Program-made: the position numbers and the translations under genes
The notes under the pieces: generated by a model
Database searches by the model: none
Told to the model about the DNA's origin: nothing
Seen by the model: the letters and a program-made list of their open reading frames with translations, nothing else
Origin: a virus
IMG/VR virus record: IMGVR_UViG_3300022074_000029
Span: 4,169-68,168 of that record
Strand: one strand, 5' to 3'
Length of the DNA stretch: 64,000 nucleotides
Shown: one piece after another, positions 1 through 33,964 of the stretch
Layout of the letters: every line of letters starts with the position of its first letter
Position numbering within the stretch: position 1 is the first letter of the stretch

Positions 1-273
1 AATGGTCTCACTCATACTATCTTATTGAGAAACCTACCTATCATCGAAATGGCACAAACTATTGGTAGGGTCATCAGAGTCCATAAAGATGATCGCAAGG
101 CGGTTGCAGAGGGTCTCATCCCCTCAGGAGCGTTCCATTTATACAAGAAGGCATTTGGACAAGTGACAATGCCGATCGGGTATCGTATGGGAGACGTTAC
201 AAAGATGAGACTTGAGCAAGTTGTAAACAGTATCTTTATTGAAGGAGTACCACCCCTCGCTTATTGCATCTAA
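1..273 (+). CDS. C-terminal end of a superfamily-2 (DEAD/type III restriction-like) helicase, 5' truncated by the window
   Basis: The frame is open from position 1 (NGLTHTILLRNLPIIEMAQTIGRVIR...). QTIGRVIR matches SF2 motif VI (QxxGRxxR). Confidence 0.7.
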   Translation, partial: NGLTHTILLRNLPIIEMAQTIGRVIRVHKDDRKAVAEGLIPSGAFHLYKKAFGQVTMPIGYRMGDVTKMRLEQVVNSIFIEGVPPLAYCI

Positions 274-1193
274 TGAAAGACACAATTTTATATGGAGATT
301 GTAGAGATACAATCCCAACAATAACAGAACCAGTTCAAATGTGTGTTACATCACCACCTTATTATGGTCTTAGAGACTATGGTGGAGAAGACAAACAGAT
401 TGGACAAGAAGGAAGTCCAGAGGAGTTTATCGACCAACTGGTAGAGGTATTCAAAAAGGTTAGGAATGTTCTAACTGATGATGGAACTCTATGGGTTAAC
501 ATGGGAGACACATACTATAACTATAGGAGTGATGGGAACTATCCTAAACAAACAGTAAGTAAAACTAATCAAGACCTACCTAGTTTCTCACCTGCTAGAG
601 GAAACAAACTAAAAGGACTAAAGAGTAAGGATTTAATTGGCATCCCTTGGATGTTGGCATTCGCACTAAGGAAGGATGGATGGTATCTTAGACAAGATAT
701 CATTTGGCATAAACCTAATCCAATGCCAGAGTCAGTTAAGGATAGATGCACTAAATCTCATGAATATATTTTCTTACTGAGCAAGAGTAAGAACTATTAC
801 TACGATAATGAAGCAATCAAAGAACCTGCAAAAGACTGGGGAACTAGAGACCGCACAAATGGCAAGTATCATAATAAAGGAACTGGTTTACAACCTCATA
901 GCGGATTGAGTAAGAGTTATCCTACAAAGAATAAGAGATCAGTATGGACAGTAACGAGCAAACCATATAAGGAAGCACATTTTGCTACCTATCCACCCGA
1001 CTTGATTGAACCTTGCATCAAAGCAGGTAGTAAGAAGGGTGATATAATCCTAGACCCATTCATGGGTAGTGGAACAACAGCAATGGTATCTAAGCAATTA
1101 GATAGGCACTTTATAGGATGTGAGTTACATGACTCATATAAAACTCTTATAAATGGAAGACTACCAAACACAGCATTGAGTGACCTCTTCTAA
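273..1193 (+). CDS. Beta-class amino DNA methyltransferase (N4-cytosine/N6-adenine family)
   Basis: Catalytic TSPPY near the N-terminus, IIWHKPNPMP, HFATYP, and SAM-binding DPFMGSGTT near the C-terminus. ATG at 273 overlaps the upstream stop (TAATG). No cognate restriction gene nearby. Confidence 0.92.
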   Translation: MKDTILYGDCRDTIPTITEPVQMCVTSPPYYGLRDYGGEDKQIGQEGSPEEFIDQLVEVFKKVRNVLTDDGTLWVNMGDTYYNYRSDGNYPKQTVSKTNQDLPSFSPARGNKLKGLKSKDLIGIPWMLAFALRKDGWYLRQDIIWHKPNPMPESVKDRCTKSHEYIFLLSKSKNYYYDNEAIKEPAKDWGTRDRTNGKYHNKGTGLQPHSGLSKSYPTKNKRSVWTVTSKPYKEAHFATYPPDLIEPCIKAGSKKGDIILDPFMGSGTTAMVSKQLDRHFIGCELHDSYKTLINGRLPNTALSDLF

Positions 1194-1253
1194 TGTGCCA
1201 CTTCAGGTACTGTCACACATATGGTTGCATATGACTAGCATATGCCTTATATT
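1194..1253 (+). promoter_or_regulatory. Palindrome-promoter unit 1
   Basis: TGTGCCAC-TTCAGGTA-CTGTCACA (1194-1217), then TTGCAT (1225-1230)-N17-TATATT (1248-1253). Internal inverted repeat GCATATG/CATATGC. Confidence 0.8.
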
Positions 1254-1259
1254 AAGAAT

Positions 1260-1482
1260 GTCGAAACAAACCAACGTAAAACTTTCAAGGTTGCGTTCAG
1301 TCGCATTTAAATCGAACTTAAGTAGTTGAGTTTTGTTTCGACCCATCCAAACACAGGGCAAAGATCTATGGTTGTTTCAATTCAGTTGAGAAATTACGTC
1401 TTTTAAGTCCCACCATAGAGGTCATCTAGTCAAACCTAACATTGCGTTGGAGCATCTAGTTTAACATGACATTGACCTCTAT
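1260..1482 (+). ncRNA. Putative structured non-coding RNA or 5' leader, family unassigned
   Basis: Begins about 7 nt after a -10 box and has no long ORF. Perfect stems: GTCGAAACAAA (1260-1270)/TTTGTTTCGAC (1332-1342), TCTATGGT (1365-1372)/ACCATAGA (1412-1419), ATAGAGGTCA (1415-1424)/TGACCTCTAT (1473-1482). Confidence 0.55.
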
Positions 1483-1510
1483 ACCCCTATTCAAATTATT
1501 TTCAAAGGTC

Positions 1511-1738
1511 ATGGAAGACACACTCGATCTAAATTTTGAGAGACAAACATCAATCGATAACATGATTGATTCACTCTATGAAGCAATGACTAACAATGGA
1601 CTGAAGGGAAACATCCCCGAAGCAGCAGCATGTTACGAGGAGTGGGTAGTAGATGGAGTTGACCCTCAAGAAGTTGATAAGTATGAATTCACATTCTTAA
1701 ACAACATGACCCTACCTACATTCGAGAAGGACTTTTAA
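1511..1738 (+). CDS. Small acidic hypothetical protein (early cluster)
   Basis: ORF 1466..1738. ATG 1511 after AAAGG is preferred because 1466 lies inside the RNA stem. Confidence 0.65.
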   Translation: MEDTLDLNFERQTSIDNMIDSLYEAMTNNGLKGNIPEAAACYEEWVVDGVDPQEVDKYEFTFLNNMTLPTFEKDF

Positions 1739-1918
1739 ATGAAAAACTTTTCATCAATTTACTATCCTGATCTCGACCCCTACGAGCAGCAGTATAATGA
1801 CATTTGGTTTATGCAAATGTTATCACGTTTAACACTTGACGGTATTTTGTTTATACCTGATCTTAACAAATCATTTAATAAAAAAGGAGAAGAGATTAAT
1901 GACAACCGCAGCACCTAA
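1739..1918 (+). CDS. Small hypothetical protein (59 aa, not in ORF track)
   Basis: MKNFSSIYYPDLDPYEQ...NDNRST*. ATG directly follows the previous stop. Confidence 0.55.
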   Translation: MKNFSSIYYPDLDPYEQQYNDIWFMQMLSRLTLDGILFIPDLNKSFNKKGEEINDNRST

Positions 1919-2036
1919 GTTACGGTATCCAAAATATAAACTTAAAAGATTCTCTCATAAAAAGTGGGGAGCAGATAAAGTTTATAGAAATGTATACTAC
2001 TTACAGTTTTTTGTAAACAGTACGTGTGACAGTTAA
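1899..2036 (+). CDS. Small basic hypothetical protein
   Basis: MTTAAPKLRYPKYK..., preceded by AAAGGAGA. The stop lies inside palindrome 2. Confidence 0.45.
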   Translation: MTTAAPKLRYPKYKLKRFSHKKWGADKVYRNVYYLQFFVNSTCDS

Positions 2037-2083
2037 TTATGTGTCACACACTACCACGCATAGGGTATAAACTACCCTATAAT
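2025..2083 (+). promoter_or_regulatory. Palindrome-promoter unit 2
   Basis: TGTGACAG-TTAATTAT-GTGTCACA (2025-2048), 29 bp, TATAAT (2078-2083). Hairpin ATAGGGTA/TACCCTAT lies between. Confidence 0.85.
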
Positions 2084-2105
2084 AAGAATAACGAAACAAA
2101 GGAAC

Positions 2106-2363
2106 ATGACTATCCCAACTCAAAACCTTTACGAACAAATGTTCATGAAACAAGAAGAACCAATTGACTTTCTAGTCACTATCTACGAGGACTATCTAAG
2201 CAAGCATAATCTACCAGAATATGATGCAAGCGATATGCTTCATGCTCATCATATTGGAGAGATCGAACTACATGATGGTCAAATCGGTTGGTTCAACAAC
2301 TTTATTCGCTTATGGGATTTTGTAAGCGAAGCAGAATATCAAAACTTTTCATCAGGAGTTTAA
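2106..2363 (+). CDS. Small hypothetical protein
   Basis: 85-aa ORF directly downstream of promoter unit 2, with AAAGGA before the ATG. Confidence 0.7.
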   Translation: MTIPTQNLYEQMFMKQEEPIDFLVTIYEDYLSKHNLPEYDASDMLHAHHIGEIELHDGQIGWFNNFIRLWDFVSEAEYQNFSSGV

Positions 2364-2364
2364 A

Positions 2365-2622
2365 ATGGACAAAGCACTAATCAATGAACTAAAATCATTT
2401 TTAGTTGAGAGATATGTAGATAACATGTCAACAAAAGATCTAGTTCAATATGTCATGGATGATCTTGATGACCTATACAAAAACATGCCAGATGAAGAGT
2501 TTATTGATGAAGCAAAAAACTACTGGGATGACGGTTTTGGCGAAGTAATTGATGAGATTCAAGATTATATGAAAACACCTTTTAAACAACCATTAAGAGA
2601 ATCATTCGAGGAGACTAACTAA
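2365..2622 (+). CDS. Small acidic hypothetical protein
   Basis: 85-aa ORF tightly coupled to both neighbours. Confidence 0.7.
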   Translation: MDKALINELKSFLVERYVDNMSTKDLVQYVMDDLDDLYKNMPDEEFIDEAKNYWDDGFGEVIDEIQDYMKTPFKQPLRESFEETN

Positions 2623-2798
2623 TGAACTACAAACAACAAATTGAACTTGATGGTTACATCAATATCTGGGAAGTAATACCAGAGGATGAACATTCACATA
2701 TTTCTAACAAGATATGGGAAGCACTTGATAGAGCAGGAATTGAGTTATCTCAAGATGCAGAGTTATCAGTTAGAGTCTATGATGAGAGGGTAGATTAA
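2622..2798 (+). CDS. Small hypothetical protein (58 aa, not in ORF track)
   Basis: MNYKQQIELDGYINIWEVIPE...; TAATG overlaps at both ends. Confidence 0.6.
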   Translation: MNYKQQIELDGYINIWEVIPEDEHSHISNKIWEALDRAGIELSQDAELSVRVYDERVD

Positions 2799-2965
2799 TG
2801 AAAATCAAAGACGTGACCAACTCACAAAAAGACTGGGATGACTTTTGGTATCATTCTACAGATAAGATAAGTGTTTCAGAGTATCAAAAGAAAGCATACG
2901 ATGAAACTACATCCATATCTGAATTAGAGAGTCTAGCAGATGACCCTATGGGAATTGGCAAGTAG
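2798..2965 (+). CDS. Small hypothetical protein (55 aa, not in ORF track)
   Basis: MKIKDVTNSQKDWDDFWY...GIGK*. The stop abuts palindrome 3. Confidence 0.55.
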   Translation: MKIKDVTNSQKDWDDFWYHSTDKISVSEYQKKAYDETTSISELESLADDPMGIGK

Positions 2966-3024
2966 TGTGACAGTTTAGGTACTGTCACATAGTTCCCCTA
3001 TTCCTATTTCATTCCCTTTATAAT
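2966..3024 (+). promoter_or_regulatory. Palindrome-promoter unit 3
   Basis: TGTGACAG-TTTAGGTA-CTGTCACA (perfect arms, 2966-2989), 29 bp, TATAAT (3019-3024). Confidence 0.85.
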
Positions 3025-3046
3025 AAGAATAACAAACGAGGAAACT

Positions 3047-3322
3047 ATGCAATTCAAATCTCAAAACGAAGAAACAGTAATTGACTATTACGAGGTTCAT
3101 AACGTTAACAGAGAGATAGTTAAAAATGCTAGATTGAGAGTCATTACATTCTTAGGTAAGACAGTTGCAAATGCACCTATCAACGTTTTTGACATGGCAG
3201 AAGAGATTGATGTTCTACTAGAAAAGAACTATGCAGTTACTTGTAACACAAAAAGACCATCACAGTATATGCTTAATGTGACAGCACAGAAAGTGGCACA
3301 ATCACGCACATCTTTCTACTAA
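3047..3322 (+). CDS. Small hypothetical protein
   Basis: 91-aa ORF with a GAGG RBS. Its 3' end reads through palindrome 4. Confidence 0.7.
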   Translation: MQFKSQNEETVIDYYEVHNVNREIVKNARLRVITFLGKTVANAPINVFDMAEEIDVLLEKNYAVTCNTKRPSQYMLNVTAQKVAQSRTSFY

Positions 3323-3335
3323 TCCCCATTATAAT
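3277..3335 (+). promoter_or_regulatory. Palindrome-promoter unit 4
   Basis: TGTGACAG-CACAGAAA-GTGGCACA (3277-3300), 29 bp, TATAAT (3330-3335). Confidence 0.85.
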
Positions 3336-3358
3336 AATAGTATAAACAAACAAACATC

Positions 3359-3811
3359 ATGACCGAAACACTTACATTAAAAGAGAGAGTTGAAGATTGG
3401 ACAGCAGAGCATTGTTTAGCACTTGAGCAGAATTATCTTGATTATCATAGGAGAATGATAACAAATAACTTTGAGAGATACTCAGGAGTTAGATCAGATT
3501 TATCTGACTATGCAAAAGAGCAACTTGATGCTATGGACAATGGAACTTTCAGAGGTAAGAAATTCACATTCAGCGAAGGTAAGAAGTACCTAAAAGTTGT
3601 TATGAATGACTATAACAACTTAACTGGAAAGTATGACGGAAGAGGAGTCCATTGCTTTATCGATAAGAATACTGGCGAAGTGTATAAAGCAGCATCTTGG
3701 AAAGCACCAGCGAAGGGAGTTCGCTTTGATATGAGAATTATTAGAGAAAGGGAACTAATGCATAATTCTAACTTCTGCGGATGGTCAGGAGGGTATCTAT
3801 ATGCCAGATAA
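3359..3811 (+). CDS. Conserved phage hypothetical protein
   Basis: 150 aa. VHCFIDKNTGEVYKAASWKAPAKGVRF is a motif I recognise from marine phage hypothetical proteins. Confidence 0.75.
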   Translation: MTETLTLKERVEDWTAEHCLALEQNYLDYHRRMITNNFERYSGVRSDLSDYAKEQLDAMDNGTFRGKKFTFSEGKKYLKVVMNDYNNLTGKYDGRGVHCFIDKNTGEVYKAASWKAPAKGVRFDMRIIRERELMHNSNFCGWSGGYLYAR

Positions 3812-3862
3812 TAAACTGTCACATGGGAGGTTGCAATTCCTCTCATTATTTCCTATTATAAT
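3800..3862 (+). promoter_or_regulatory. Palindrome-promoter unit 5
   Basis: TATGCCAG-ATAATAAA-CTGTCACA (3800-3823), then TTGCAA (3831-3836)-N17-TATTAT (3854-3859), overlapping TATAAT (3857-3862). Confidence 0.8.
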
Positions 3863-3886
3863 AATAACGATACATACATCACTATT

Positions 3887-4120
3887 ATGAGATCACCTAA
3901 AGGTTGGAACATCGAACTCAGCACAACACAATTCGATTATCTTTGTAACGTATTAATGGAAGCAAATGATGACGCTAAAATTGTAGGAAAAGGTTGGGAC
4001 ATTCAAACATTTGATAATCTAGTTGATAATGTTTGCAATGCTAAAGAAACATACTTATCCCTAGACTGTAAAGGTGTTAGGAGTATAGTAGAAGGTAAAA
4101 TTCAATTGGAGAGAAACTAA
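3887..4120 (+). CDS. Small hypothetical protein
   Basis: 77-aa ORF downstream of unit 5. Confidence 0.7.
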   Translation: MRSPKGWNIELSTTQFDYLCNVLMEANDDAKIVGKGWDIQTFDNLVDNVCNAKETYLSLDCKGVRSIVEGKIQLERN

Positions 4121-4251
4121 TGAACACATTTGAAATTACATTTGATGAGCAATATCAACTCATTAAATTATATGATCTCTTGAGAGATAACGGTATGATT
4201 GATGATCTACCTAAAGAGATAGAAACCTTTTTTGATAAACTAACCTACTAA
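4120..4251 (+). CDS. Small hypothetical protein (43 aa, not in ORF track)
   Basis: MNTFEITFDEQYQLIKLYDLL...; TAATG coupling at both ends. Confidence 0.55.
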   Translation: MNTFEITFDEQYQLIKLYDLLRDNGMIDDLPKEIETFFDKLTY

Positions 4252-4427
4252 TGGAAGATTTAACAGAAAAGCAAAAGTTGCTTATTCACTTGAATGAATC
4301 TAAGAAGATTCTTGAAAAATGCACCTCACTTGATGATGAGAATGTAGGCATCTTCCAGGAATTCAATCGTATCATATACGAAGAGATTTTGAAACCTATG
4401 GTGGACAGTAATAAGACTGGCACATAG
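4251..4427 (+). CDS. Small hypothetical protein (58 aa, not in ORF track)
   Basis: MEDLTEKQKLLIHLNES...VDSNKTGT*. Reads through palindrome 6. Confidence 0.55.
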   Translation: MEDLTEKQKLLIHLNESKKILEKCTSLDDENVGIFQEFNRIIYEEILKPMVDSNKTGT

Positions 4428-4459
4428 TACTCCCATTTTTATTTTATTTCCTTTATAAT
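4401..4459 (+). promoter_or_regulatory. Palindrome-promoter unit 6
   Basis: GTGGACAG-TAATAAGA-CTGGCACA (4401-4424), 29 bp, TATAAT (4454-4459). Confidence 0.8.
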
Positions 4460-4480
4460 AAGAGTAATTAAACAAACAGC

Positions 4481-4774
4481 ATGACTTCACTTCAAATCGT
4501 AAACGCTCACAGACAGATCTCAGATTTCGTAGATTATGTAGATCTATTCTATGGCACTTCAGATGGTGACGAAACACTTTATCCCCTATATCTAAAAGGT
4601 CAGAGATTGACTAAAGAAGATATTCGTCACGCTACTATCGTATATTTGGATAGATGTAATAATGATGATTTTCAAAATTGCACATGGGGTGACGGAGATT
4701 CATTAGACAGAGAAAGAGTAAGAGACATTCTAACAGAGAAATTTGGATATGATTACGACAGTGTGACAGTTTAA
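4481..4774 (+). CDS. Hypothetical protein
   Basis: 97 aa, containing WGDGDSLDRERVRDIL. The stop lies in the spacer of palindrome 7. Confidence 0.75.
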   Translation: MTSLQIVNAHRQISDFVDYVDLFYGTSDGDETLYPLYLKGQRLTKEDIRHATIVYLDRCNNDDFQNCTWGDGDSLDRERVRDILTEKFGYDYDSVTV

Positions 4775-4820
4775 TTACTGTCACATATAAACCCCATTCT
4801 ACGGAGTGGGGTCTTATAAT
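4762..4820 (+). promoter_or_regulatory. Palindrome-promoter unit 7
   Basis: TGTGACAG-TTTAATTA-CTGTCACA (4762-4785), 29 bp, TATAAT (4815-4820). Hairpin ACCCCATTC-TACG-GAGTGGGGT lies between. Confidence 0.85.
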
Positions 4821-4842
4821 ATTAATATACAAACAAAGAAAC

Positions 4843-5085
4843 ATGAATTCAACAGCAACTTACATCGAACCAGTTAATCGAATCAAACAGCGTATTTTGT
4901 TTGATGATAACCTCGATAACCTTACATGCTTATGTGCTAACTGGGAAGAGTATGTTATTGAGATCTCAGAGTGGGGCATTTACAAGTTAGGAGGAGTTGA
5001 TTTTGATACTCTTACTAAGCAAGATATTGCTAAACTAGATCAGTTCATGGTCTCACAAAATGGTTATGAAAAGGAGGAAGTTTAA
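4843..5085 (+). CDS. Small hypothetical protein
   Basis: 80-aa ORF after unit 7. Confidence 0.7.
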   Translation: MNSTATYIEPVNRIKQRILFDDNLDNLTCLCANWEEYVIEISEWGIYKLGGVDFDTLTKQDIAKLDQFMVSQNGYEKEEV

Positions 5086-5379
5086 ATGAGAACATTTGAT
5101 TTTAAAAAGTCTCAAGAGATTAGTCACTCTAATTTCTTACCAGTTCAGACTATTGTAAGCGAAGAATTTGGTAGGCACTTCTTTATTGATATTGCATTTG
5201 AGTTCATATCAGCAGCATCCTTAAAAGATGGTGGATATGATAAAAACACTCTCGGATATGTTTCAGAGTGGGATGACTGGGAAGGGGTCAACAAAACTGA
5301 ACTATTTGAAATATATCGAAAGTTAGTCGCAGATGAGTATCATGAAGAGACTACCAGAATTTTAGAAAGATTTCAATAG
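5086..5379 (+). CDS. Hypothetical protein
   Basis: 97-aa ORF with an AGGAGG RBS. Confidence 0.75.
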   Translation: MRTFDFKKSQEISHSNFLPVQTIVSEEFGRHFFIDIAFEFISAASLKDGGYDKNTLGYVSEWDDWEGVNKTELFEIYRKLVADEYHEETTRILERFQ

Positions 5380-5383
5380 TATA

Positions 5384-5442
5384 TGTGACACTTTAAATAG
5401 TGGCACACGTACGCCCCATATGTGGATCGGGGCGACTATAAT
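5384..5442 (+). promoter_or_regulatory. Palindrome-promoter unit 8
   Basis: TGTGACAC-TTTAAATA-GTGGCACA (5384-5407), 29 bp, TATAAT (5437-5442). Hairpin CGCCCC/GGGGCG. Confidence 0.85.
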
Positions 5443-5467
5443 TAGAGTATACAAACAAAGAAACATC

Positions 5468-5758
5468 ATGAATTTATTTGACGCAGTTCCATTTTTCGTA
5501 GATCAAGAGTTAGGTTACGAAGTGGACGAAGAGAACATCAGTTCATACGATGTTCAAAGGGTATTTAAAATTGTTGTTGATAATTGCGATAACTTCTCAC
5601 TAGGCACTTTGACACCTAAAAATCACATGATGATTAAAAGAATGGTAAGGAATGCAATTTCTCTCATGGTATCCGATGATAGTGAAGAGAGAGATCAATT
5701 CAATCAAATGGTAAGAGAAGTTAAGCAAGATTTATCAAAGAAAGTGGCACTAGCATAA
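5468..5758 (+). CDS. Hypothetical protein
   Basis: ORF 5420..5758. The start is moved to ATG 5468, downstream of the -10 box. The stop lies in palindrome 9. Confidence 0.7.
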   Translation: MNLFDAVPFFVDQELGYEVDEENISSYDVQRVFKIVVDNCDNFSLGTLTPKNHMMIKRMVRNAISLMVSDDSEERDQFNQMVREVKQDLSKKVALA

Positions 5759-5802
5759 GTGTCACAAAGGGGTTGCCAAAAACCCCATTTATCCCTTATA
5801 AT
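5743..5802 (+). promoter_or_regulatory. Palindrome-promoter unit 9
   Basis: AGTGGCAC-TAGCATAA-GTGTCACA (5743-5766), TTGCCA (5773-5778), TATAAT (5797-5802). Hairpin GGGGTT/AACCCC. Confidence 0.8.
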
Positions 5803-5833
5803 AAGAGTAACAAACACAATGAGACCGAGAATT

Positions 5834-6016
5834 ATGTCACATGCAGTAAACGATTCAATCCTAGAAAATCTTTATGATGAAGTATGGGAGGATTACAGAA
5901 AGTCAAACAATCTAACACTAGATCAAATGTATCACTTAGAGCAAGATGAAAATTCTGGTATTATGTCAATGCTAGGAGATCAAGCAATGAGAGCATTTGA
6001 AGCGAGGTGCATTTAA
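5834..6016 (+). CDS. Small hypothetical protein
   Basis: MSHAVNDSILENLYDEVWE...; alternative start at 5819. Confidence 0.65.
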   Translation: MSHAVNDSILENLYDEVWEDYRKSNNLTLDQMYHLEQDENSGIMSMLGDQAMRAFEARCI

Positions 6017-6219
6017 TGGAACTAACACCTAAACAACTTGAATATCTACTCACATGCCTAGATTTTCATTATACAGAGTATGAAGGTTCTAAGGATGACA
6101 TAATCGAAATTAATGCTAGTATAGGCAGATTGATTAATCATGAATTAGAGCAATTTAAGAAAGTTCAAAAGAAGATAGATAAGAAGAGAGAATTGCTACC
6201 TAAACCAGAATGGGGTTAA
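6016..6219 (+). CDS. Small hypothetical protein
   Basis: MELTPKQLEYLLTCLDFHY...; TAATG coupling with GAGG upstream. Confidence 0.65.
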   Translation: MELTPKQLEYLLTCLDFHYTEYEGSKDDIIEINASIGRLINHELEQFKKVQKKIDKKRELLPKPEWG

Positions 6220-6222
6220 AAA

Positions 6223-6450
6223 GTGCATCACGTTTTGTACGAATGGAGCGAACTTGTTGAAATAGATCAACGATTAAAGAGAATAGAGGAAGCAATCCAA
6301 CTTACGAAGGATTTAAACACTATTCTCTATAATAGCGATAATAAAGACCTATTGCAACATAGTCACATTATACAAAAGGAATTAGAACAGCAATTCCAGG
6401 AGATTCAATCTATTTTCGAGAATAGACTTAAAAAAACTAACTTATCCTAG
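6223..6450 (+). CDS. Small coiled-coil hypothetical protein
   Basis: 75-aa ORF with a GTG start. Confidence 0.6.
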   Translation: MHHVLYEWSELVEIDQRLKRIEEAIQLTKDLNTILYNSDNKDLLQHSHIIQKELEQQFQEIQSIFENRLKKTNLS

Positions 6451-6684
6451 ATGAATTTTAAACTCTTTGACTTATACCGTATAGGGAACGATATAGGTTA
6501 TATCTCTTTTATTTCTAAGGCACATTATATAACCTTAGTTGTAAGAGAATGGGAGGATAAAGAGACTATGAACGGAAAAAGACAAGTTAAAATTCTTGTA
6601 TTTCCTCATGAGTATGAATCAATGGAATTACTAGATCGTGATACATATGCGGAACAGTTCCCGCACACATTTGTAAAGGGATGA
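6451..6684 (+). CDS. Small hypothetical protein
   Basis: 77-aa ORF abutting the previous stop. Confidence 0.65.
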   Translation: MNFKLFDLYRIGNDIGYISFISKAHYITLVVREWEDKETMNGKRQVKILVFPHEYESMELLDRDTYAEQFPHTFVKG

Positions 6685-6806
6685 GAGACGAAGAGAAAAT
6701 AACTAAACCTAAGCAGTTGCAATATATTTGGACGATTCTTAAGGAGTTGGTAGTTTTGCAATGGATGGAAGTAAGAAAGCATAAAAGATGGAATAAAGGG
6801 GAATAA
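6681..6806 (+). CDS. Small hypothetical protein (41 aa, not in ORF track)
   Basis: ATGA overlap; MRDEEKITKPKQLQYIWTILKELVVLQW... Confidence 0.45.
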   Translation: MRDEEKITKPKQLQYIWTILKELVVLQWMEVRKHKRWNKGE

Positions 6807-6925
6807 CTGAAAACCTTTTAAATATGTAAATAAATCTAGTTTAGTGTTCAATCTGTTACACTCTTAGCACGTTTTTTATCGACTGTCAAGGGTTGCGAGT
6901 ATACCGACACATTTCTCAGAAGGGG

Positions 6926-6954
6926 TTGACTTTAATATATAAAGATGATACAAT
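6926..6954 (+). promoter_or_regulatory. Sigma70-type promoter without the upstream palindrome
   Basis: TTGACT-N17-TACAAT upstream of ATG 6983. Confidence 0.7.
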
Positions 6955-6982
6955 AACACTGCAAGGGTTCAGAAAAAGATCT

Positions 6983-7198
6983 ATGGTTTATTCACTCTAT
7001 GATGATAAGCATAAATTGATAGGACAGTTTAAAAGCATCTATGAGTTACAGACATTTATTCATGACTTCAGAGTGAACAGAGAAGAGTGGAGGATAAGAA
7101 AGAACCAGGATATTAGCACTTTCGATTATATCAAATCTATTGGATATTTTTGGGATTGTGTGCCAGTACAACAAGTGTCACAAGAGGACTTCTCATAG
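6983..7198 (+). CDS. Small hypothetical protein
   Basis: MVYSLYDDKHKLIGQFKSIYELQ... The start is placed downstream of the promoter. Reads through palindrome 10. Confidence 0.65.
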   Translation: MVYSLYDDKHKLIGQFKSIYELQTFIHDFRVNREEWRIRKNQDISTFDYIKSIGYFWDCVPVQQVSQEDFS

Positions 7199-7217
7199 GG
7201 TCATGGGTTGCTATAAT
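7159..7217 (+). promoter_or_regulatory. Palindrome-promoter unit 10
   Basis: TGTGCCAG-TACAACAA-GTGTCACA (7159-7182), 29 bp, TGc-TATAAT (7212-7217). Confidence 0.85.
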
Positions 7218-7243
7218 TAGTATAACAACACAGAGAAACCCAA

Positions 7244-7564
7244 ATGAGAAAGATTGAAAGACAAATGAATCAAGCAATCAGAACAGGCAATAACTTCTCA
7301 TCATCTAATACAATGGTTAGGCACGGTTGGGAGAATGAAGCGGATGTTTATCTACATGGCAATCATATAGCAACAGTTAAGAACAATTCAATCATCATCA
7401 AAGATGGCGGTTGGCAATCCAATACAACCAAATCACGCTTAAATGCTCTACTTGATGAGTTTTCATATGGCATGAGAGTATTTCAAAAGAATTACGAGTG
7501 GTTCGTATCTTATAAGAATGTCAAGCAAGATTTTATAAGCGGTATGGAGTTAGCAATCGACTAA
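7244..7564 (+). CDS. Conserved cyanophage hypothetical protein
   Basis: 106 aa; VYLHGNHIA...DGGWQSNTTKSRLNALL...VFQKNYEWF motif. Confidence 0.8.
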   Translation: MRKIERQMNQAIRTGNNFSSSNTMVRHGWENEADVYLHGNHIATVKNNSIIIKDGGWQSNTTKSRLNALLDEFSYGMRVFQKNYEWFVSYKNVKQDFISGMELAID

Positions 7565-32100: not shown

Positions 32101-33964
32101 TAAAGTTGTTCAAGTATATCAAAGATTCCGTATTGATGGTGATATTACAGATGGTCCTTACACCATGAATGAAGTTGTTGCTAAACAAGGTAATCCTTCT
32201 GTGACTGGAGTTGTGTATGGTTTCTGGTCAGATGCCAATTATAAGTATCTTGATGTTCGTGTAACTGCAGGTCCTTGGGCAGTAGCAGATAACATTGTTG
32301 GTGCTACTAACTCTACAACTGCACAAATTAGTGCAGTCGAAGACAGGATTCATGTTATAGATCTTAAGGGTGAATTTGCTGATAATATTCCATTCAAAGG
32401 ATATACATCAGGTGCAACTGCAACACCTACATCATTCATTAAATCTCAAGCAGCGATCATCGATAATACTGGTGGTAAATTAACAGTTGACACTGAATCA
32501 TTACTAGGAACATTTGAAACAACGACTGTTGTTTATCCAGAATCTTCCAGATCATATCTTGATGTTGTTAAGTTCTCTGGTCTTGATATATCTGTTGGTG
32601 ACAGAATTGCATCTACAGGATATAAGAGACTTGGTATTTCAGTTATAAGTGGATTAAATGTATTTACTGAGGGTAATAGACTTTATAAAGTTAACTCAGG
32701 TATACAAGATACAAATACATATGCCATTATTACTGAAGTTGACATAGCAAACAACTTCATTTACATCGCAGAATATCAAGGAACATTTACTAATGGTGAT
32801 ATTATTGGTGACTATGGTGTTGCTGCTAGTTTCCCAGTAGGTTATGGTTCCGTTCTAACTGCAACTACAACTGCAGGTGCAGCAGCTGGACTTGTTCAAG
32901 ATATTCGTGATGTTGGACTTAATAAGAGATTATATCTCAGTAATATTGTTGGAACATTTGATGATAAGGATGGAATCAAAGGACCAGATTCTTATGGATC
33001 TGTAATCATTGGTAAGGTTGAACTTAAAGCTCGTGTTAAACGTTCCTTTAGAGGATTTGATGGTGTTCAAACATCATTCAAACTTACACAGAATAATGGA
33101 ACTCAATATCTACCTGATCCTGCAGGACATATGCTCATCTTTGTTAATGGTATTCTACAACCACCAGGTGCTACTAATGCATATACAGCGTTCTCTGATA
33201 CTATTCAGTTTACTGAAGCACCTGATCTTGGAGCATCATTCACAGGATTCTATGTTGGTAAACTTAGACAGTTAGATGATATATCATTCGAGTTTGATTC
33301 ATTACGTCAGTCATTCAACTTGAAACGTAATGATGTATTCTACTCACTAACTCTTACAGAGGGTGTACAATCTAGCGTTATCAGACCTGAGAATAATATT
33401 ATAGTTTCTCTTAATGGTGTTATTCAAGAACCAGGCGTTGGTTTTGAGATTGTTGGTTCTAGAATTATCTTCTCTGAGATTCCTAGATTTGGATCAACAT
33501 TCGTTGCCTTCTCTTTTGTTGGTTCTGAAGCAGACGTTGATGCTGCTGAAGTTATTCCACCAATAGAACCAGGTGACTTCATTGATATTCAAGGTGAAAC
33601 CTCTGATAGACAGGTTGCTGTTATTGAATCTTCAAACTCATTGATTACATTCGATTATCTTGGATCTGTATTTGGTCAAGGTGCAGTTGGACAATCTGTT
33701 ATAACCTCAGGGTATATTAAGAATGTTCAAGTAACATCTGGTGGATCTGGTTATACATCAAGACCTACTGTTAGACTTGATTCTATCTCTGGTTTTGAAG
33801 GAAATATTAAGGCACTTGTTGGGGTAGCAGGTGTTGAAATGAGTGCTGCAGGATCTGGTTATCAGAATCCAGGCATCAGCGTTGACACTGTTGTTCCTGA
33901 TGATTATGTTGCTCCTGACCTTTCATTGTATGGTGAAGAGTTAGTAGACCCCGAAACCCCATAA
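14156..33964 (+). CDS. gp7: Giant gp7-like baseplate wedge initiator / virion protein (6602 aa)
   Basis: N-terminal QSPAFIENDYPLFNKFIEYYY, IKDFYTAKGT..SISYLFKLLYG, and IQDSYYYQDFSYAIKS...VHPASFKVFGE are typical of cyanophage gp7. Also carries YHYH-like, LamG-like and many Gly-rich beta repeats. Follows gp6. Confidence 0.8.
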   Translation: MNINKVSQSIAKQSPAFIENDYPLFNKFIEYYYRSQEKTGLGQNIVNEFLQYLDIDKLNIEVLDGVTKVVEAFTTTDDEIVVESVDQFLENDGSVLIGNEVIYYEKTSHAPNIALSPGISYEQVKLKWTTLASPIDSFDGSTVTFNLTSQDSPVAAPSAQHLIVSAYGKVLVPNIDYTVSGTQITFATAPRTRIPADDSSSTYITYLRGFVENPIVAIDNISSSFGGGKTQFTVTRNGVRYEPVADEYIAAIYDNRLLVPKVDYFLDGDQFIFLTAPLNGRFLSLYSIEAPIPSFGSNAIGYSRVDNTGQLTSVAINASGSNYRFEYPPQVSVNSDEGSGASVSSLVNGIKSLSLIDGGKGYSDTNPPVAQVQTPTKPGSTAAVLKATVTNGAVSGVEITTSGSGYTFTPRITFRQPGGAVLGTCPLVNGQVVGTIPITDGGFGYTTVPTIYIDEPTGTNSIKAALQAVLTNGVITSINILNAGQGYTTTPRIAVIDPVGAQVLETTVDTDGRVIRIELLNGGSGFDDIPSVYIVDSRTDATGNYAGGTGATAVASIFNGQITDINVTAFGTGYSSATPPKVIIQSPPEAKASAEIGLNEVTGFTVNQKGKGYSKAKFIGCARAASGVTSYTEDGNAVFTNNTVAETGAIDASVKCLDALFIKRLLDKYTEQYLPDVPELDYKKIDVRTAIKTIKDFYTAKGTSFSISYLFKLLYGEQVSISYPKDQIIKPSAATWSIDTILRATLVSGDPVNIRDGLVTQDADIADPSILAASALVENYISIKTSDVEIFELVLSEETIVGTFVVPYKTKLAEPLNATESIITVDSTIGWPERNGEFIIGASEVVQYKEKSLNQFIECTRSTNGIVEDWDSATELTSNFQVFVNKGTTQEVVLNVVGIVDAQQTVLTDTGSYYLPGDKLTVSKLGGTGTSPELTTWLYNVKKLISVTSIIYGGVNNQSATVTCSNPHGLLVGDQVTIYGANPILFNGTFEVTSRDSTTVFQYNLPQPATVIPQGNILVSVDLNKGKSNDTPVLNAIGPYTTNVQNSFFNTTHVYVASTGIPNYIIGPFPGSALLPGNQRKLNRFPLVPVTISTKDAISPGPIGTWVNGVSIWSYKSSIKKTFGAVTSINITNAGKGYDAAFPPTITVSGGSGTGATASVVVNGSISEITVTASGSGYTSSPLVSIVGGGGSGAAATAIITKGVVSRILINDGGTGYTSQPAITIVGGGGSGATGTANVRGPIQSIAVTSGGASYTSKPSIVLSSGSGAVAQAIVQNGRIISIAIISAGFGYTTAPEIGIQGDGFGAVARATIDVDGENAGRVTGITIVNRGIGYIQGTTIINLTSVGQDAAFSANVFEWTYNLQETTSLDAAKGGVFDGFNIQYGGEYAHPSNPQTLRYILGDNLFKNTQQQIKEQETQLVHSPIIGWAFDGNPIYGPYGYSDPTDQNSSVARLNTSYRLKTNLVYDANTNPYPVRTAGPLLTAEVAGKFVEDYEYIFSLGDLDQYNGRFCKTPEYPTGRYCYFVTIDTTEDGNPLFPYILGPSFNSVVDTWNLSASAVQQNIPTGVVRYRDPYENVDIDVERAPNASTNALTTEGGDILLFEIEDEDRSGVIEQAEIDDPDQIFEESPLQLFDYFPKVKLDSKVDIEVETITKFEDASVTGFTIENSGLSYQVDDRLIFDNDGTDGTGVSGRISRIVGESVLTYGFENVNGDNFGVLKTTNPHNLVAGDTVFIDYEPIMNNTNKTFVVRQFKGIEEIVVNQTGSGYNSDIPPVITIVPRDNLGKSASLQAVVTSVGSIDTVNILNSGSGYTQNPRVILSHPQIFKKADYYVSKIENQNYVKVNDVVVNTDKEVYICGITQDASGNKVGFVAKLSATGVKEWQKTLESTAGTYYTEFEKLYVDGTSIWVVGNNRPNSSLLDAYNPDIILAKYTEAANGLSATLDFQKAYAGISGATRADHVTAIQKYSDTRFIIGGFTNTNSGNPYDAYLAFIDTSGNFSIKRKIATANASEKITDIIINGTDVYFSMETAVSSTATAVNAAFGKATVGTIDISVAWIKEYTNTLYSFFNTSCCIDEFQEVYLTSTLRLKSNNTTQDSYWVGKVDTDGDLIWNYRYLVSNGQITMAGKCTIDIFGDLNLTFGKTATTDSLKTVESVKIGYDGVIKNHTTNQFNLKNIEGITPYSLATDTSGDIHIFGQSSWNRNEFIFPFTSGAITDTTGHYTLTNTNTSGSVTLADNVAKIYGYQTGQSTWTQGNLQITSAQLGTRLNDSWTLEMMLYKDSTVTSLSQTIQTIFAIGDAEDATGGLWLYYDTSSGNLELKVTNSSTKLNAAGSALQSGSSTMYANNTWQFISLVKNGNVFTAYVNGIQALTGTIASTALGSKDLYIGNIPGRTATPGQFRVNEQGQYFVDNLRLRNRAITPTVPTDVTAFPTAGAFAFAYTWTDTAWFTTNLNQYDYIDYTGWGIKVDKNADAARIGTYALQTNTQVGFIRTNVTPVTGSTLTIVSTGLNLGDAGFQNLDFDDATTTMSQDTETLTYTQDVWSSRTATVPSPGSQKLSVTAVVKDRYYFKITPTLKIDNVQELTLNQSFRFTTGAKLRLNNDAGTFVNSGYIVKQDTTNNKIYLAINNNDWTNDTATGLLVTEQFSEQSSYGIVGPIPNDINEIVAFTFANVNNTTPGTFDIDLNSYNHPEGGSNNLDELAKFKPHSDIDYSIRIDEITTGSPFIVGSVVFITASDISFNAAYTTAQITNLTAVTKITLVANLTKRLQVSSVANSDEVYVITSNSHYLNANEMLFIDGNPTQTVGATTYDEYDGSFSVDRVISSKEFVYKLPQAAVTSPATTGSSVNIFVKSPVIKMYNGHQYLFDLSHSSMLGGNLSFSKDNLNKLEYSFNSIERVGTPGVTGEGVTSPTVKLKVDSSIVTNISYYFDPSRTGTDSPIVEGSYLDVTNSPYLGNFVITSTSGQTITRGADTFKFSLVNEPEGAADITQATYTTSSKKAVGSIGAVRIVNSGGFYTRLPIITSIQSNRQIERVAINTPGTEYAVGVYNGVPIGGDGEGGLVQITVADGTDDSGGVIPGQINSVVVTSPGKGYTTATIDIEAIDGILGAGLAGSGAELQVVIPAFGSGASIFTKGDKVGKIKKLKNNNFGYDYPHDYTLRPEITFPINAQLTSTSILASITVTNPGSGYSQAPTVVITGGGGSGAVAESTIRNGRLDQILVKDPGAGYSSTPTVALRSAFNYVVNLDLGLLQFAFPHGITSGSAVTVTVTDTGDGAEYPLAAGAVGRLNASTTYYAIAGAANSLEDDQLKLAITASNAALGDALSFVNAGNGRQTVLTESFGGAATANVVTSTFLEGELVYQGDSLETATAQGYVSTNQGWQIGPRIIKIVDYTGDFSEGQKVTGVISKSSGTISDLNIAKGVLEIGSITKTTGQFIDDVGKPSEIIQKIQDSYYYQDFSYAIKSAVSIGEWKDILIKNVHPASFKVFGELNLSDYGSIPNKTTDFQITKSVELAREAIVPNIQNFALVEPIYSEFNNTEVLFRQKRLTSSENILTSVVQRLDDISNLFDGERISFPLTVNQQNVVANANQLMIVLNGVTQNPGTSFQIQSDSIVFSEPPQPPASIKYVNVTINQIGTKDLTFTNISGIFPNVGNTLTGTVSGSRLTVTKVLGNTISGFVTEGTFVVGELVNVGATGFAANIAAVTDVVSNGLYAFGETVTNLTSDTAIVEQINLATGQETPLAQLRYTVGPSTASIEVVAYKVVNSDADAVVPLNTFTVTKNYQFGAEIFRVDSITQNSNSTTLGVTRAQSGSAAASQQEFTPVYGTDISVTTFLTLSKTAGTYQSTPGLFDIQLNDYIIGASSGVVSQITATSAYQDTTTNEFISQINISEGSSFFGLLFNRITSQTYPNVVLDNISQSQVSIVQFQDNTTAFDLDFPNNEILNSYIIPYDNLVTGPIQQDEDIRNYKFDYGNASGDFNVGEIVNVRKLVFKDRVGDGFFAAGQVIRTTDTKAEVIGYSQARSTVYLGKIGRTQSTGEDYHVATFTKATINTANKKFGQACLALTPGLSPHTFTSGVTDAITASNGATGSFTAATGTTYNPVTGDMVLEIGTHTLTTSNKVTIADGGVTFTCAQDGNTSGKAYPRATDPASGSALTITAVTTTTITVGVGVASPIDEYISIPSSTEFAFGSGAFTIECWVKPLSASLTGEKNIIDTRASGATEVAGRLYLNAAQLRWHVNGSDLVNTGSTVLTADTWYHVAVVKSSTTTKIYIDGVERGTGTDSTTYTAKPIRVGMDYNAANGFAGYIDELRVSNTNRYTGAFTAPLGVFQGDANTKLLFHFDGANGDQFTQDWSGTQSFTKGEDFNNDAILATSRVTGAPAGFASKSQRYYDAADLIIANSDFIKKEVVYQMRQRYPELVILGTRYTPTAATYDAATGLLSMTVTGNNLVNGGTITPQTATYNAATGVMVITKLAHGLKNGQRVNIKVGGVTFTCTQDSGASEHAYPRSTDPVAGQWIPVANVTDHTFEVNVGASPSGQQYTHTFVSALANGITVEKDRIKINDGALTFTCAMDSNGSNKTYPRATDPASKDVALPIVSSSTTNLTVNVGPSPLVNFQPTNATYDPATGAFVMTIANHTINVGTDIRLTADSFTFTCTQDGNSAQKTYPRATAGDGSPDPAYNTALAVTAVGTTTQDVSSASYDPATGILTINTNSAHSLSTGNRVQIADNSLTFTCAYDSNATNHTYPRQTDPIRGEWVEVTVVDSDTFTIDVGTSSDTSTHSFVSATAGALIKQTGTVTINVGVSAQADQYAHTFVSAAANAVVTGGNYLHTFVSAVANSVIGDEGINCEDDIRDTLNAIVQDIRNGSNNHIWDAASYYVNRTTNPVQIAQIEPAVKETLFAYEKVDDMLQYIITNTLWTVQGDHGLTQKTDTTITDSSNPSYTNFDVTNATYNPATGDMVLTIGTHSLTTSSRIDLAIGGIVFTCTKDGNASNHAYPRATDPAANAVLAVTSVVANTSITVNVGVSGANDQYAHTFVSAAQSVVRVLDYSTSDCADVFTTVGNLINILTDTITNASANTPVDHLASVTKVLPAFEFVGATVDSFLDTEFTSSYQDTTNDILYTNQIDSDTRYRFRDAARLIRSNRSVIVDKAAADMLTRYPALAQDMPRNANGGSTDGTLRCKTDLGLILDGVADDVENDGNLGTITAAKFYIGNSGELLHIRLQVFQSVYAHDRLAYYAKQAVLGTLDYTNTDNIIVGNWGVTGAGVANYFDAVTTYIDTLTTTINDIIAPTAIDYNIAADRLYFNRLWIREEVTGYTINNFQYDLNSTTYNAFTYGAGQKDIAEDALEDLLLAIISDLQTGGSNSTIAEMEKYLTATLTINNTVLSEKGLPARIYSIEKMKTIGEYALKNYAYPSTSNETAPNYSAIYTGQAAYRDSESPSAINDVAFRFKELIDISLNILAPGRNVARSAAKNIQYNTNYYQNEIGNQVNAQFGSGSWVYDSFVEELVDNFVADSITTDITKKSDAYTITLSAQNGTNFVVGEVVTSSGGGIATVLEWDPENDLLYVGPFTSTAWVATNTLSAPSGATGTIGSGGVSSAYTWYTEPSNVEYLKSARSITSNIAGQVSGTNLWTNPEAFGTNWTASNLTKTDNAFAGPDGTVTSEKYVGQSGVSGNHILHRDFSLTAFETFDTDSVKFDSSGETFDTGSTSDVSQTFTASVFFKAVGSQSIRYKLQLDQGQAGEQNIFFDLNLTNGTIGSLFIPQGGITGDAFGAIPYGNGWYRAYITATFSFGFSSLRTQVTVNSSTGSASWTGDGTTGAYFWGAKLNKGAVDPYTAVSGQIFYANTEYNIKNYTIDLLETYMSQALDNTLTSPSPNSGFYSYYDSTAASDYAKVSVMGFVRYGLNIIRNQLDVDSYYTTVIQNTGITVPTKTYGTREIPVGVSGGVTASDYIYGIVSSQYAEIENITENTGKVVQVYQRFRIDGDITDGPYTMNEVVAKQGNPSVTGVVYGFWSDANYKYLDVRVTAGPWAVADNIVGATNSTTAQISAVEDRIHVIDLKGEFADNIPFKGYTSGATATPTSFIKSQAAIIDNTGGKLTVDTESLLGTFETTTVVYPESSRSYLDVVKFSGLDISVGDRIASTGYKRLGISVISGLNVFTEGNRLYKVNSGIQDTNTYAIITEVDIANNFIYIAEYQGTFTNGDIIGDYGVAASFPVGYGSVLTATTTAGAAAGLVQDIRDVGLNKRLYLSNIVGTFDDKDGIKGPDSYGSVIIGKVELKARVKRSFRGFDGVQTSFKLTQNNGTQYLPDPAGHMLIFVNGILQPPGATNAYTAFSDTIQFTEAPDLGASFTGFYVGKLRQLDDISFEFDSLRQSFNLKRNDVFYSLTLTEGVQSSVIRPENNIIVSLNGVIQEPGVGFEIVGSRIIFSEIPRFGSTFVAFSFVGSEADVDAAEVIPPIEPGDFIDIQGETSDRQVAVIESSNSLITFDYLGSVFGQGAVGQSVITSGYIKNVQVTSGGSGYTSRPTVRLDSISGFEGNIKALVGVAGVEMSAAGSGYQNPGISVDTVVPDDYVAPDLSLYGEELVDPETP
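26366..29320 (+). repeat. Six copies of a ~95-aa module (ATYdpaTG...FTC..D....YPRaTDP...ITVNVG...HTFVSA) inside gp7
   Basis: Visible in the translation at about 26450, 27450/27840 (split copy), 27540, 28030, 28265 and 29020. Confidence 0.85.

Follow-up and report, generated by a model that had tools for sequence, protein, structure and literature searches.

Three portable structured RNA modules behind a putative early promoter of an uncultured T4-like cyanophage

We analysed a 64-kb stretch of DNA (hereafter the window) from a 68-kb IMG/VR record whose completeness is estimated at 39%. The baseplate region is ~72-75% identical to that of the Synechococcus phages S-SM1, S-SSM5 and metaG-MbCM1, and the window therefore belongs to an uncultured T4-like cyanomyovirus. 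It begins with the end of a helicase-like gene (i.e., the counterpart of a metaG-MbCM1 gene that comes after one annotated UvsW), followed by a DNA methyltransferase gene, a putative promoter, the structured segment 1260-1482 and a series of small open reading frames (ORFs). The features around the structured segment are as follows.

1-273: 3' end of a helicase-like gene, its C-terminus 67% identical to the metaG-MbCM1 gene annotated "helicase"
273..1193, + strand: N6/N4 DNA methyltransferase gene, directly upstream of the putative leader (Pfam PF01555, E 4.7e-59)
1194..1259, + strand: PeSL-like cassette head as read from the sequence, with a putative promoter
1194-1217, + strand: degenerate TGTG..CACA stem-loop of unit 1, from sequence reading
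1225-1230, + strand: -35-like TTGCAT, 17-nt spacer to the -10, from sequence reading
1227-1245, + strand: terminator-like hairpin in the promoter spacer, from a terminator scan
1248-1253, + strand: -10 TATATT, from sequence reading, with G1260 7 nt downstream
1511..1738, + strand: first ORF behind the putative leader, 75 aa, no Pfam family

Promoter-early stem-loops (PeSLs; Comeau, Arbiol and Krisch) are composite terminator/promoter cassettes of T4-type phages, as the accessible parts of two reports describe them (PMC4122927; PMC2839356); "cyanophages" has no occurrence in the text of the PeSL paper (PMC4122927). The left end of the window resembles them in carrying an array of units, each a stem-loop plus a sigma-70-like early promoter, before small variable genes. 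The PeSL characteristics are found in the surroundings (1194-1259) and not in the RNA modules described below. The first-pass annotation of this DNA had counted ten promoter units with an ATG 16-31 nt after the -10 in all except the first; a regular expression recovered the array with eight stem-loop plus promoter units carrying a -10 hexamer in the first 12 kb, and in the other seven the ATG follows the -10 by 16-26 nt. The later cassettes consist of a TGTGACAG..CTGTCACA stem-loop, a spacer of ~30 nt, TATAAT, a short ACGAAACAAAGGAAC-type leader and an ATG. Three exact TGTGACAG..TGTCACA palindromes occur, and there are five matches over both strands where 0.01 were expected. A CRP-like reading of TGTGA..TCACA was rejected on its spacing. 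At least eight stem-loop-plus-promoter cassettes lie in 1194-7250, ahead of small ORFs without a Pfam family. ORFs 1511 and 2798 have metaG-MbCM1 homologues, whose order relative to the first RNA module is different, as cassette shuffling predicts.

Judged by consensus, segment 1260-1482 appears to adjoin a sigma-70-like early promoter; this unit 1 promoter is absent from the list of a consensus promoter scan because its -35 matches only 3/6 positions. The hairpin at 1227-1245 (7 bp, GCATATG..CATATGC, then a T-rich run) covers the final four bases of the -35-like hexamer, and may end the methylase message, the TGTG..CACA stem-loop of unit 1 being degenerate. The next credible start is ATG 1511, with AAAGG at 1504-1508; it lies 251 nt after G1260, in agreement with the gap of ~250 nt reported earlier. 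We preferred it to ATG 1466 because ATG 1466 sits within the third module, because the metaG-MbCM1 homologue aligns from residue 5 of the 1511 frame and has its own start there, and because a 5-base deletion between both ATGs in relatives of the third module would break the extension. That homologue (47% identity by tblastn) stands behind an ordinary short leader. The first-pass annotation had held that the promoter drives a structured RNA instead of a gene. This does not fit the locus: no terminator-like site lies between 1260 and ORF 1511 (the only one in 1100-2200 is the upstream hairpin at 1227-1245), and in relatives an ORF usually begins a few tens of bases past the end of the last module. 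The lack of a terminator-like site after the third module thus points to a long structured 5' leader.

Segment 1260-1482 folds on the + strand with a minimum free energy of -54.8 kcal/mol, compared with -40.1 ± 4.1 for shuffled sequences (z -3.60; 0/200 as good), whereas the - strand scores z -1.60 (12/200 shuffles as good). This agrees with the earlier proposal of a multi-domain structured RNA on the + strand, and the three closing helices on which that proposal was built are present: the perfect 11-bp stem 1260-1270/1332-1342 (also found as an 11/11 inverted match), GGG..AAAGA/TCTTT..CCC at 1356-1411 and the 10-bp stem 1415-1424/1473-1482. The domains are not a single RNA design: blastn against cultured phages divides the stretch, with 1247-1349 and 1357-1410 matching different phages, and the domains are three independent, portable modules that occur apart in relatives (D1, 1260-1342; D2, 1356-1411; D3, 1415-1482). 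Their parts are listed here.

1260..1342, + strand: module D1 (invariant junction strands; covariation in 36 sequences)
1260-1270/1332-1342, + strand: D1 outer stem, 11 bp
1272-1275/1325-1328, + strand: D1 Pa, enclosing helix
A1280-T1323 plus 1282-1284/1320-1322, + strand: D1 inner pairs
1292-1295/1302-1305, + strand: D1 hairpin Pb
1356..1411, + strand: module D2, an irregular hairpin (covariance model and 19-pair covariation count)
1355-1359/1407,1409-1412, + strand: D2 P1
1361-1364/1399-1402, + strand: D2 P2
1370-1373/1392-1395 and 1375-1380/1386-1391, + strand: D2 P3
1381-1385, + strand: D2 loop TTCAG
1415..1482, + strand: module D3 (covariation in 23 sequences)
1415-1424/1473-1482, + strand: D3 outer stem, 10 bp
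1429-1432/1467-1470, + strand: D3 P2
1437-1440/1459-1462, + strand: D3 P3
1441-1458, + strand: D3 invariant 18-nt loop

By blastn, module D1 and its immediate flanks (1247-1349, 103 nt) share 100% identity with metaG-MbCM1 and 83.5% with P-RSM4 and S-TIM4, and in the latter two phages the hairpin is exchanged for another. A pattern of the two junction strands recovered 65 IMG/VR loci, which reduce to 36 distinct core sequences. Across these, 81.7% of cells were paired, compared with 19.0-47.9% in slid alignments, and the covariation score was 0.512 against 0.175 for shuffled alignments (0/500 shuffles reach it). Hairpin Pb was paired in 100% of cells, with 4/4 pairs changed on both sides; the lone purine-pyrimidine pair (A1280-T1323) is GC in 30 sequences and AU in 6; and Pa has a wholly different sequence in each sub-family, with 9/9 pairs changed on both sides. 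Only 65% of Pa cells pair in one fixed register because the bulges differ. Two caveats go with these results: RNAalifold alone recovered only hairpin Pb in D1, the other helices having been set by eye and then counted, and the search patterns for D1, D2 and D3 fixed many columns, so that their invariance is partly by construction.

Some of the inner helices first drawn for D1 gave way to this fold. The TTGCG of the proposed CGTAA/TTGCG helix is part of Pb, where 4/4 pairs co-vary, and the two compete; GTTC/GAAC occurs only in some hairpin variants. The word TTAAGT, reported as unpaired and shared by domains 1 and 2, is indeed present in both (1318-1323 and 1403-1408), but in D1 it is partly paired. 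D1 sub-families range from 72 to 89 nt, and their length differences (2, 10, 11, 16 and 17 nt) shift the frame, which argues that D1 is not coding. The 23-codon frame from ATG 1258 measures only 11 codons in P-RSM4, and other sub-families lack its ATG. The metaG-MbCM1 GenBank record annotates a 264-nt minus-strand "helicase" coding sequence across D1 (L001:2358-2621), which is probably spurious given the evidence for a D1 RNA.

Module D2 (1357-1410 in blastn) matches P-SSM5 (92.6%), P-SSM2 (85.2%) and four single-cell-associated marine virus records. A D2 covariance model found a single copy in the window (1348-1419, 79.6 bits, E 2.8e-20). After chance matches were removed by eye and with a stricter pattern, at least 63 distinct 72-nt sequences remained; the D2 counts that follow in this paragraph are among the matches listed. 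Over 19 pairs and 63 sequences, 94.6% of 1197 cells held standard pairs, compared with 41.4-52.8% when the 3' partners were slid by 1-3 columns. Eight pairs changed on both sides (73 cells), and the covariation score of 0.207 was reached by 0/500 shuffles (0.111 shuffled). In P2, GC became AU independently at two positions; in the apical stem, UA/GC became AU/AU in 13-16 sequences; and P1 includes GC, AU, UA and CG, its junction-side C-G being once U-A. Two G-U pairs are present in 63/63 sequences, in addition to further U-G variants. Since these would be A-C mismatches on the opposite strand, the folded strand is +. Both internal-loop strands were fixed by the D2 search patterns, and their invariance is again partly by construction.

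For D3, the loop pattern recovered 16 IMG/VR and 17 metagenome loci, corresponding to 23 distinct sequences. Pairing held in 70.8% of cells (31.6-42.0% slid), with a covariation score of 0.431 compared with 0.202 shuffled (0/500 shuffles reach it). Three pairs of P2 are kept in 22/23 sequences through double changes (UA/CG/AU to or from CG/UA/CG), the loop-side pair of P3 is AU in 17 and CG in 6, and the outer stem differs by sub-family, with 9/10 pairs changed on both sides. The AAAC/GTTT and CTAAC/GTTGG pairings first suggested inside D3 were replaced by (T)AAC/GTT(T) beside the loop, which is what relatives back. Thus, the covariation among homologues that had been named as a check was found in the helices of all three modules. 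In the window, the D3 loop is complementary over 9 bp to the 5' side of D1, a match that was discarded because it is not kept in the sub-family that carries D3 and D1. TTCAG is displayed by both the D1 hairpin (1292-1305) and the D2 apical loop (1381-1385), and the D3 loop opens with TTGCGTT, a word also in the D1 hairpin; these common words hint at either a common reader or a common descent of the modules.

We counted module combinations over 139 distinct contexts (D2 among the matches listed). Joint occurrence is undercounted because the flanks extend only 150-400 nt.

D2 alone: 83 contexts
D1 alone: 40 contexts
D3 then D1: 7 contexts
D3 alone: 3 contexts
D1 then D3: 2 contexts
D2 twice: 2 contexts
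D1 then D2: 1 context
D1, D2, D3: 1 context, the near-identical contig of the window

The cores sit in two outer scaffolds. One is the early leader sequence and its complement (G..GAAACAAA with TTTGTTTC..), which begins directly after the -10. A short helix whose junction reads GCA / (A or G)TAAGTC forms the second; it surrounds the D2 core and, in other contigs, a D1 or D3 core. Because the outer helices are exchanged among cores, the modules are nested building blocks. Taken together, these data establish the folds, their + strand, their conservation and covariation, and their independence of one another.

Upstream of D1, a -10-like hexamer occurs within 70 nt in 41/58 contexts (downstream control, 18/58), and upstream of D2 in 48/90 (control, 22/90; among the matches listed), while D3, which is usually the inner module, showed no enrichment (6/24, control 4/24). 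Where D1 is the last module, an ORF of at least 50 codons starts within 80 nt of the core in 25/47 contexts and within 150 nt in 36/47; where D2 is last, the corresponding numbers are 32/86 and 58/86 (among the matches listed). No ORF start was found within 150 nt in 9/47 D1-last and 11/86 D2-last contexts, and none at all within the available flank in a further 2 and 17, respectively (D2 again among the matches listed). The ORFs behind D1 differ from contig to contig. Modules thus occupy the space between a -10-like hexamer close upstream and an unrelated ORF a short way downstream. They travel with PeSL-like units, and the gene that comes next varies with the phage. One sub-family has D3 and D1 behind a stop codon, where no promoter is visible.

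A methylase C-terminus lies within 400 nt upstream in 18/58 D1 and 20/93 D2 contexts (D2 among the matches listed), and these methylases are 23-98% identical to that of the window (e.g., at loci L310, L312, L303, L054 and L004); a helicase C-terminus lies there in 4 D1 contexts and 1 D2 context (D2 among the matches listed). In P-SSM2, D2 likewise follows a methylase (23% identical to that of the window), whose stop codon overlaps the -10 hexamer. This neighbourhood may reflect functional linkage or just a shared genome position. No more than one copy of D1 or D2 is present in any of the four phage genome records, or in the contig of the window itself, and neither blastn-short nor the D2 covariance model found a second copy in the window. 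A match to promoter words at 33713 was set aside because it lies inside a coding region.

Searches of known RNAs agreed with the first-pass view that the segment is not a tRNA and belongs to no assignable family. ARAGORN found no tRNA or tmRNA gene in the window, and Rfam 15 gave no match at gathering thresholds in its 64,000 bases; at E up to 10, segment 1190-1520 gave three matches of 11.2 bits each, compared with thresholds of 34 to 180. The manA, wcaG, glnA and PhotoRC-II motifs, which the accessible parts of two reports describe as conserved folded RNAs in the 5' UTRs of marine T4-like cyanophages, mostly metagenomic (PMC2864571, PMC10665884), are matched by none of D1-D3 at gathering score or E up to 10. 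In those same texts the four motifs precede particular gene classes, whereas D1-D3 do not. Likenesses to hammerhead, pistol, kink-turn, T-loop and anticodon-loop structures were dropped by eye. Palindromic 4-mers as methylation sites are expected by chance, and an R-loop origin analogous to T4 oriF had no evidence behind it.

Exact patterns searched in one genome for each of 185,579 prokaryote species gave no match to the D2 consensus and two to D1, neither of which is a true cellular copy. One (L396) is a 1,079-base contig in a Weeksellaceae metagenome-assembled genome, with a promoter and a complete D1 behind a P-SSM2-like methylase end, and looks like a wrongly binned cyanophage fragment; the other has an unrelated sequence context and flanks without likeness. 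The D3 18-mer had eight cellular matches, also with flanks lacking likeness, a number that is about what chance would give by our estimate. We found no published description of these motifs in the accessible text of the literature searched, including PMC2518516, PMC2864571, PMC10665884 and PMC10690425 (a scope that excludes subscription journals), and six motif strings were absent from four supplement files of PMC10690425, as far as those files are accessible. D1-D3 are therefore three RNA families, in no catalogue or paper searched, that are attached to a known kind of cassette. The 2023 IMG/VR structured-RNA survey reports, in its accessible text, over ten thousand unnamed candidates (PMC10690425), and D1-D3 may be among them, the data source and kind of object being the same.

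Metatranscriptome contigs from four marine runs in three studies map to the locus and cover 675-1802. One contig of 1237 nt spans 675-1802 with 2 differences, one starts at 1260, and two from two studies end at 1354. Pieces of 1264-1338 with foreign flanks also occur, and the assembler probably broke contigs near 1354 and 1264/1338 because the repeats there are shared with other phages. These contigs indicate presence in RNA libraries only, and gaps in their coverage carry no meaning; DNA carry-over is possible, and strand and ends are not readable from them.

How might the modules act? Our preferred hypothesis, held tentatively and at somewhat below an even chance, is that 1260-1482 is the 5' leader of an early mRNA, built of three portable, phage-only RNA modules that act in cis. 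Transcription would start at G1260, so that the first base would already be paired in the 11-bp helix, which should protect the transcript from 5'-end-dependent decay. One conserved partner, for which host RNA polymerase, a ribonuclease, the ribosome and a phage protein are candidates, would dock in cis on the invariant bases of the junctions and loops and, once bound, would determine stability or expression for any early gene that the cassette happens to carry. The differing ORFs behind D1, and the ordinary short leader of the metaG-MbCM1 homologue of ORF 1511, count for such independence from the gene. By the accessible text of the PeSL paper, PeSLs combine a terminator and a promoter, with no conserved folded RNA past the start site (PMC4122927); here, by contrast, the co-varying part lies downstream of the predicted start.

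The ompA and T4 gene 32 messages have leaders with 5'-terminal stabiliser hairpins that are not known to need invariant loops. Segment 1260-1482 is like them in placing a helix at or beside the predicted first transcribed base and unlike them in having three distinct conserved cores. Stabilisation of the 5' end alone would not call for as many as three different invariant cores, and this counts against the leader hypothesis. The absence of promoter enrichment for D3, the contexts without a near ORF and the promoter-less D3 and D1 sub-family also count against it. Furthermore, at most one copy of D1 or D2 per record fits a stand-alone RNA gene as well as it fits a leader.

Indeed, the modules could be such genes: cut out of the leader or terminated, they would yield stable early small RNAs whose target, a conserved host factor or a defence, would be decoyed or sponged in trans. 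We consider this unlikely, though it deserves the first hearing among the alternatives. Besides the low copy number, the unpaired bases are invariant across Prochlorococcus and Synechococcus phages, and in roughly a quarter to a third of contexts the neighbour is a DNA methylase gene, whose function is anti-restriction. On the other hand, the window has no terminator-like site after D3, an ORF is usually close behind the modules, no processing site or target is known, and cellular genomes hold no copy or complement by exact patterns, which miss short seed pairing.

A broader form of the same idea is that cyanophages keep a library of interchangeable, nestable RNA modules, from which each would assemble one early composite RNA of ~100-300 nt for takeover or anti-defence, acting in trans or on polymerase and gripping a host machine conserved from Prochlorococcus to Synechococcus. 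It too strikes us as improbable, to a like degree. The low copy number, the loop invariance across hosts and the methylase neighbourhood are what keep trans action alive, and if the composite reading were true, that neighbourhood would stem from a role common to both during the first minutes of infection.

Less probable again is processive antitermination. The put RNAs of phage HK022 are structured, lie directly after an early phage promoter and act regardless of the downstream gene, and D1-D3 might likewise carry RNA polymerase through the downstream cassette stem-loops. The segment, too, comes directly after a putative early promoter, in the window the first of at least eight stem-loop-plus-promoter units, and antitermination would explain both the indifference to the next gene and the conservation across hosts; cyanobacteria are not known to have Rho, a further point in its favour. 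However, we saw no sequence or fold likeness to put on which to build. The downstream hairpins are unlike intrinsic terminators (the cassette stem-loops have no following T runs, and none is listed as terminator-like in 1100-2200), every cassette has its own promoter, and D1 of P-RSM4 lies in the middle of a gene block rather than at its head.

Similarly doubtful is the view that the modules are DNA-level elements, extensions of PeSL recombination cassettes that shuffle early genes, with incidental RNA folds. The modules sit at the borders of cassettes and have been shuffled among phages, and the 100% identity of D1 to metaG-MbCM1 over 103 nt, against ~72% elsewhere in the genome, suggests recent exchange. 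Yet homologous recombination has no need of strand-specific G-U pairs or double compensatory changes, and at most one copy of D1 or D2 per record speaks against a spreading repeat.

Two further readings we regard as very improbable. At least one module could be a riboswitch aptamer sensing a metabolite, as invariant internal loops between co-varying helices are a classic aptamer signature, but there is no consistent downstream gene or pathway, no expression platform (i.e., no terminator or start-codon-masking helix after the modules) and no Rfam riboswitch match, and a module can nest inside another scaffold. Finally, D2 could be a translated 12-codon mini-ORF (start 1368, stop 1404-1406) that provides a leader peptide or ribosome-loading site; among the matches listed, the frame is kept in 60/63 distinct D2 sequences, most have a purine-rich run 3 nt ahead of the ATG and the last two codons change mostly synonymously, but 1/63 has a stop at codon 7 and 2/63 lose the stop, the S to F, R to G and Q to L replacements all preserve base pairs, the Shine-Dalgarno-like run lies inside P2 and degenerates to AAAGA in the window, and the search pattern kept many D2 columns constant.

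The main photosynthetic bacteria of the ocean lose a large share of their numbers to T4-like cyanophages. A 2023 report lists, in its accessible text, only four cis-regulatory RNA motifs for these phages (PMC10665884), and D1-D3 add three further families, each with many compensatory changes. D2 is common, with at least 63 distinct family sequences among the matches listed. Their build is unusual in that the cores swap between shared outer helices and can be placed before any early gene. Should a single partner recognise the invariant loops, the modules would offer a handle on how a phage controls its first transcripts or disarms its host. Cultured phages carry D2 (P-SSM2 and P-SSM5) and D1 (P-RSM4 and S-TIM4), which makes the question amenable to bench tests. 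P-SSM2-type leaders hold further conserved pieces around D2 (e.g., one starting CGAGGAGATGGATGTG and a GGGGTTCAGGTGT motif), as well as C/U-rich tails such as CTCTCACC after the closing stems. These extra pieces, seen at L004:2340-2480 and 2545-2610, at L003:2560-2690 and at many D2 loci, are probably more modules of the same library.
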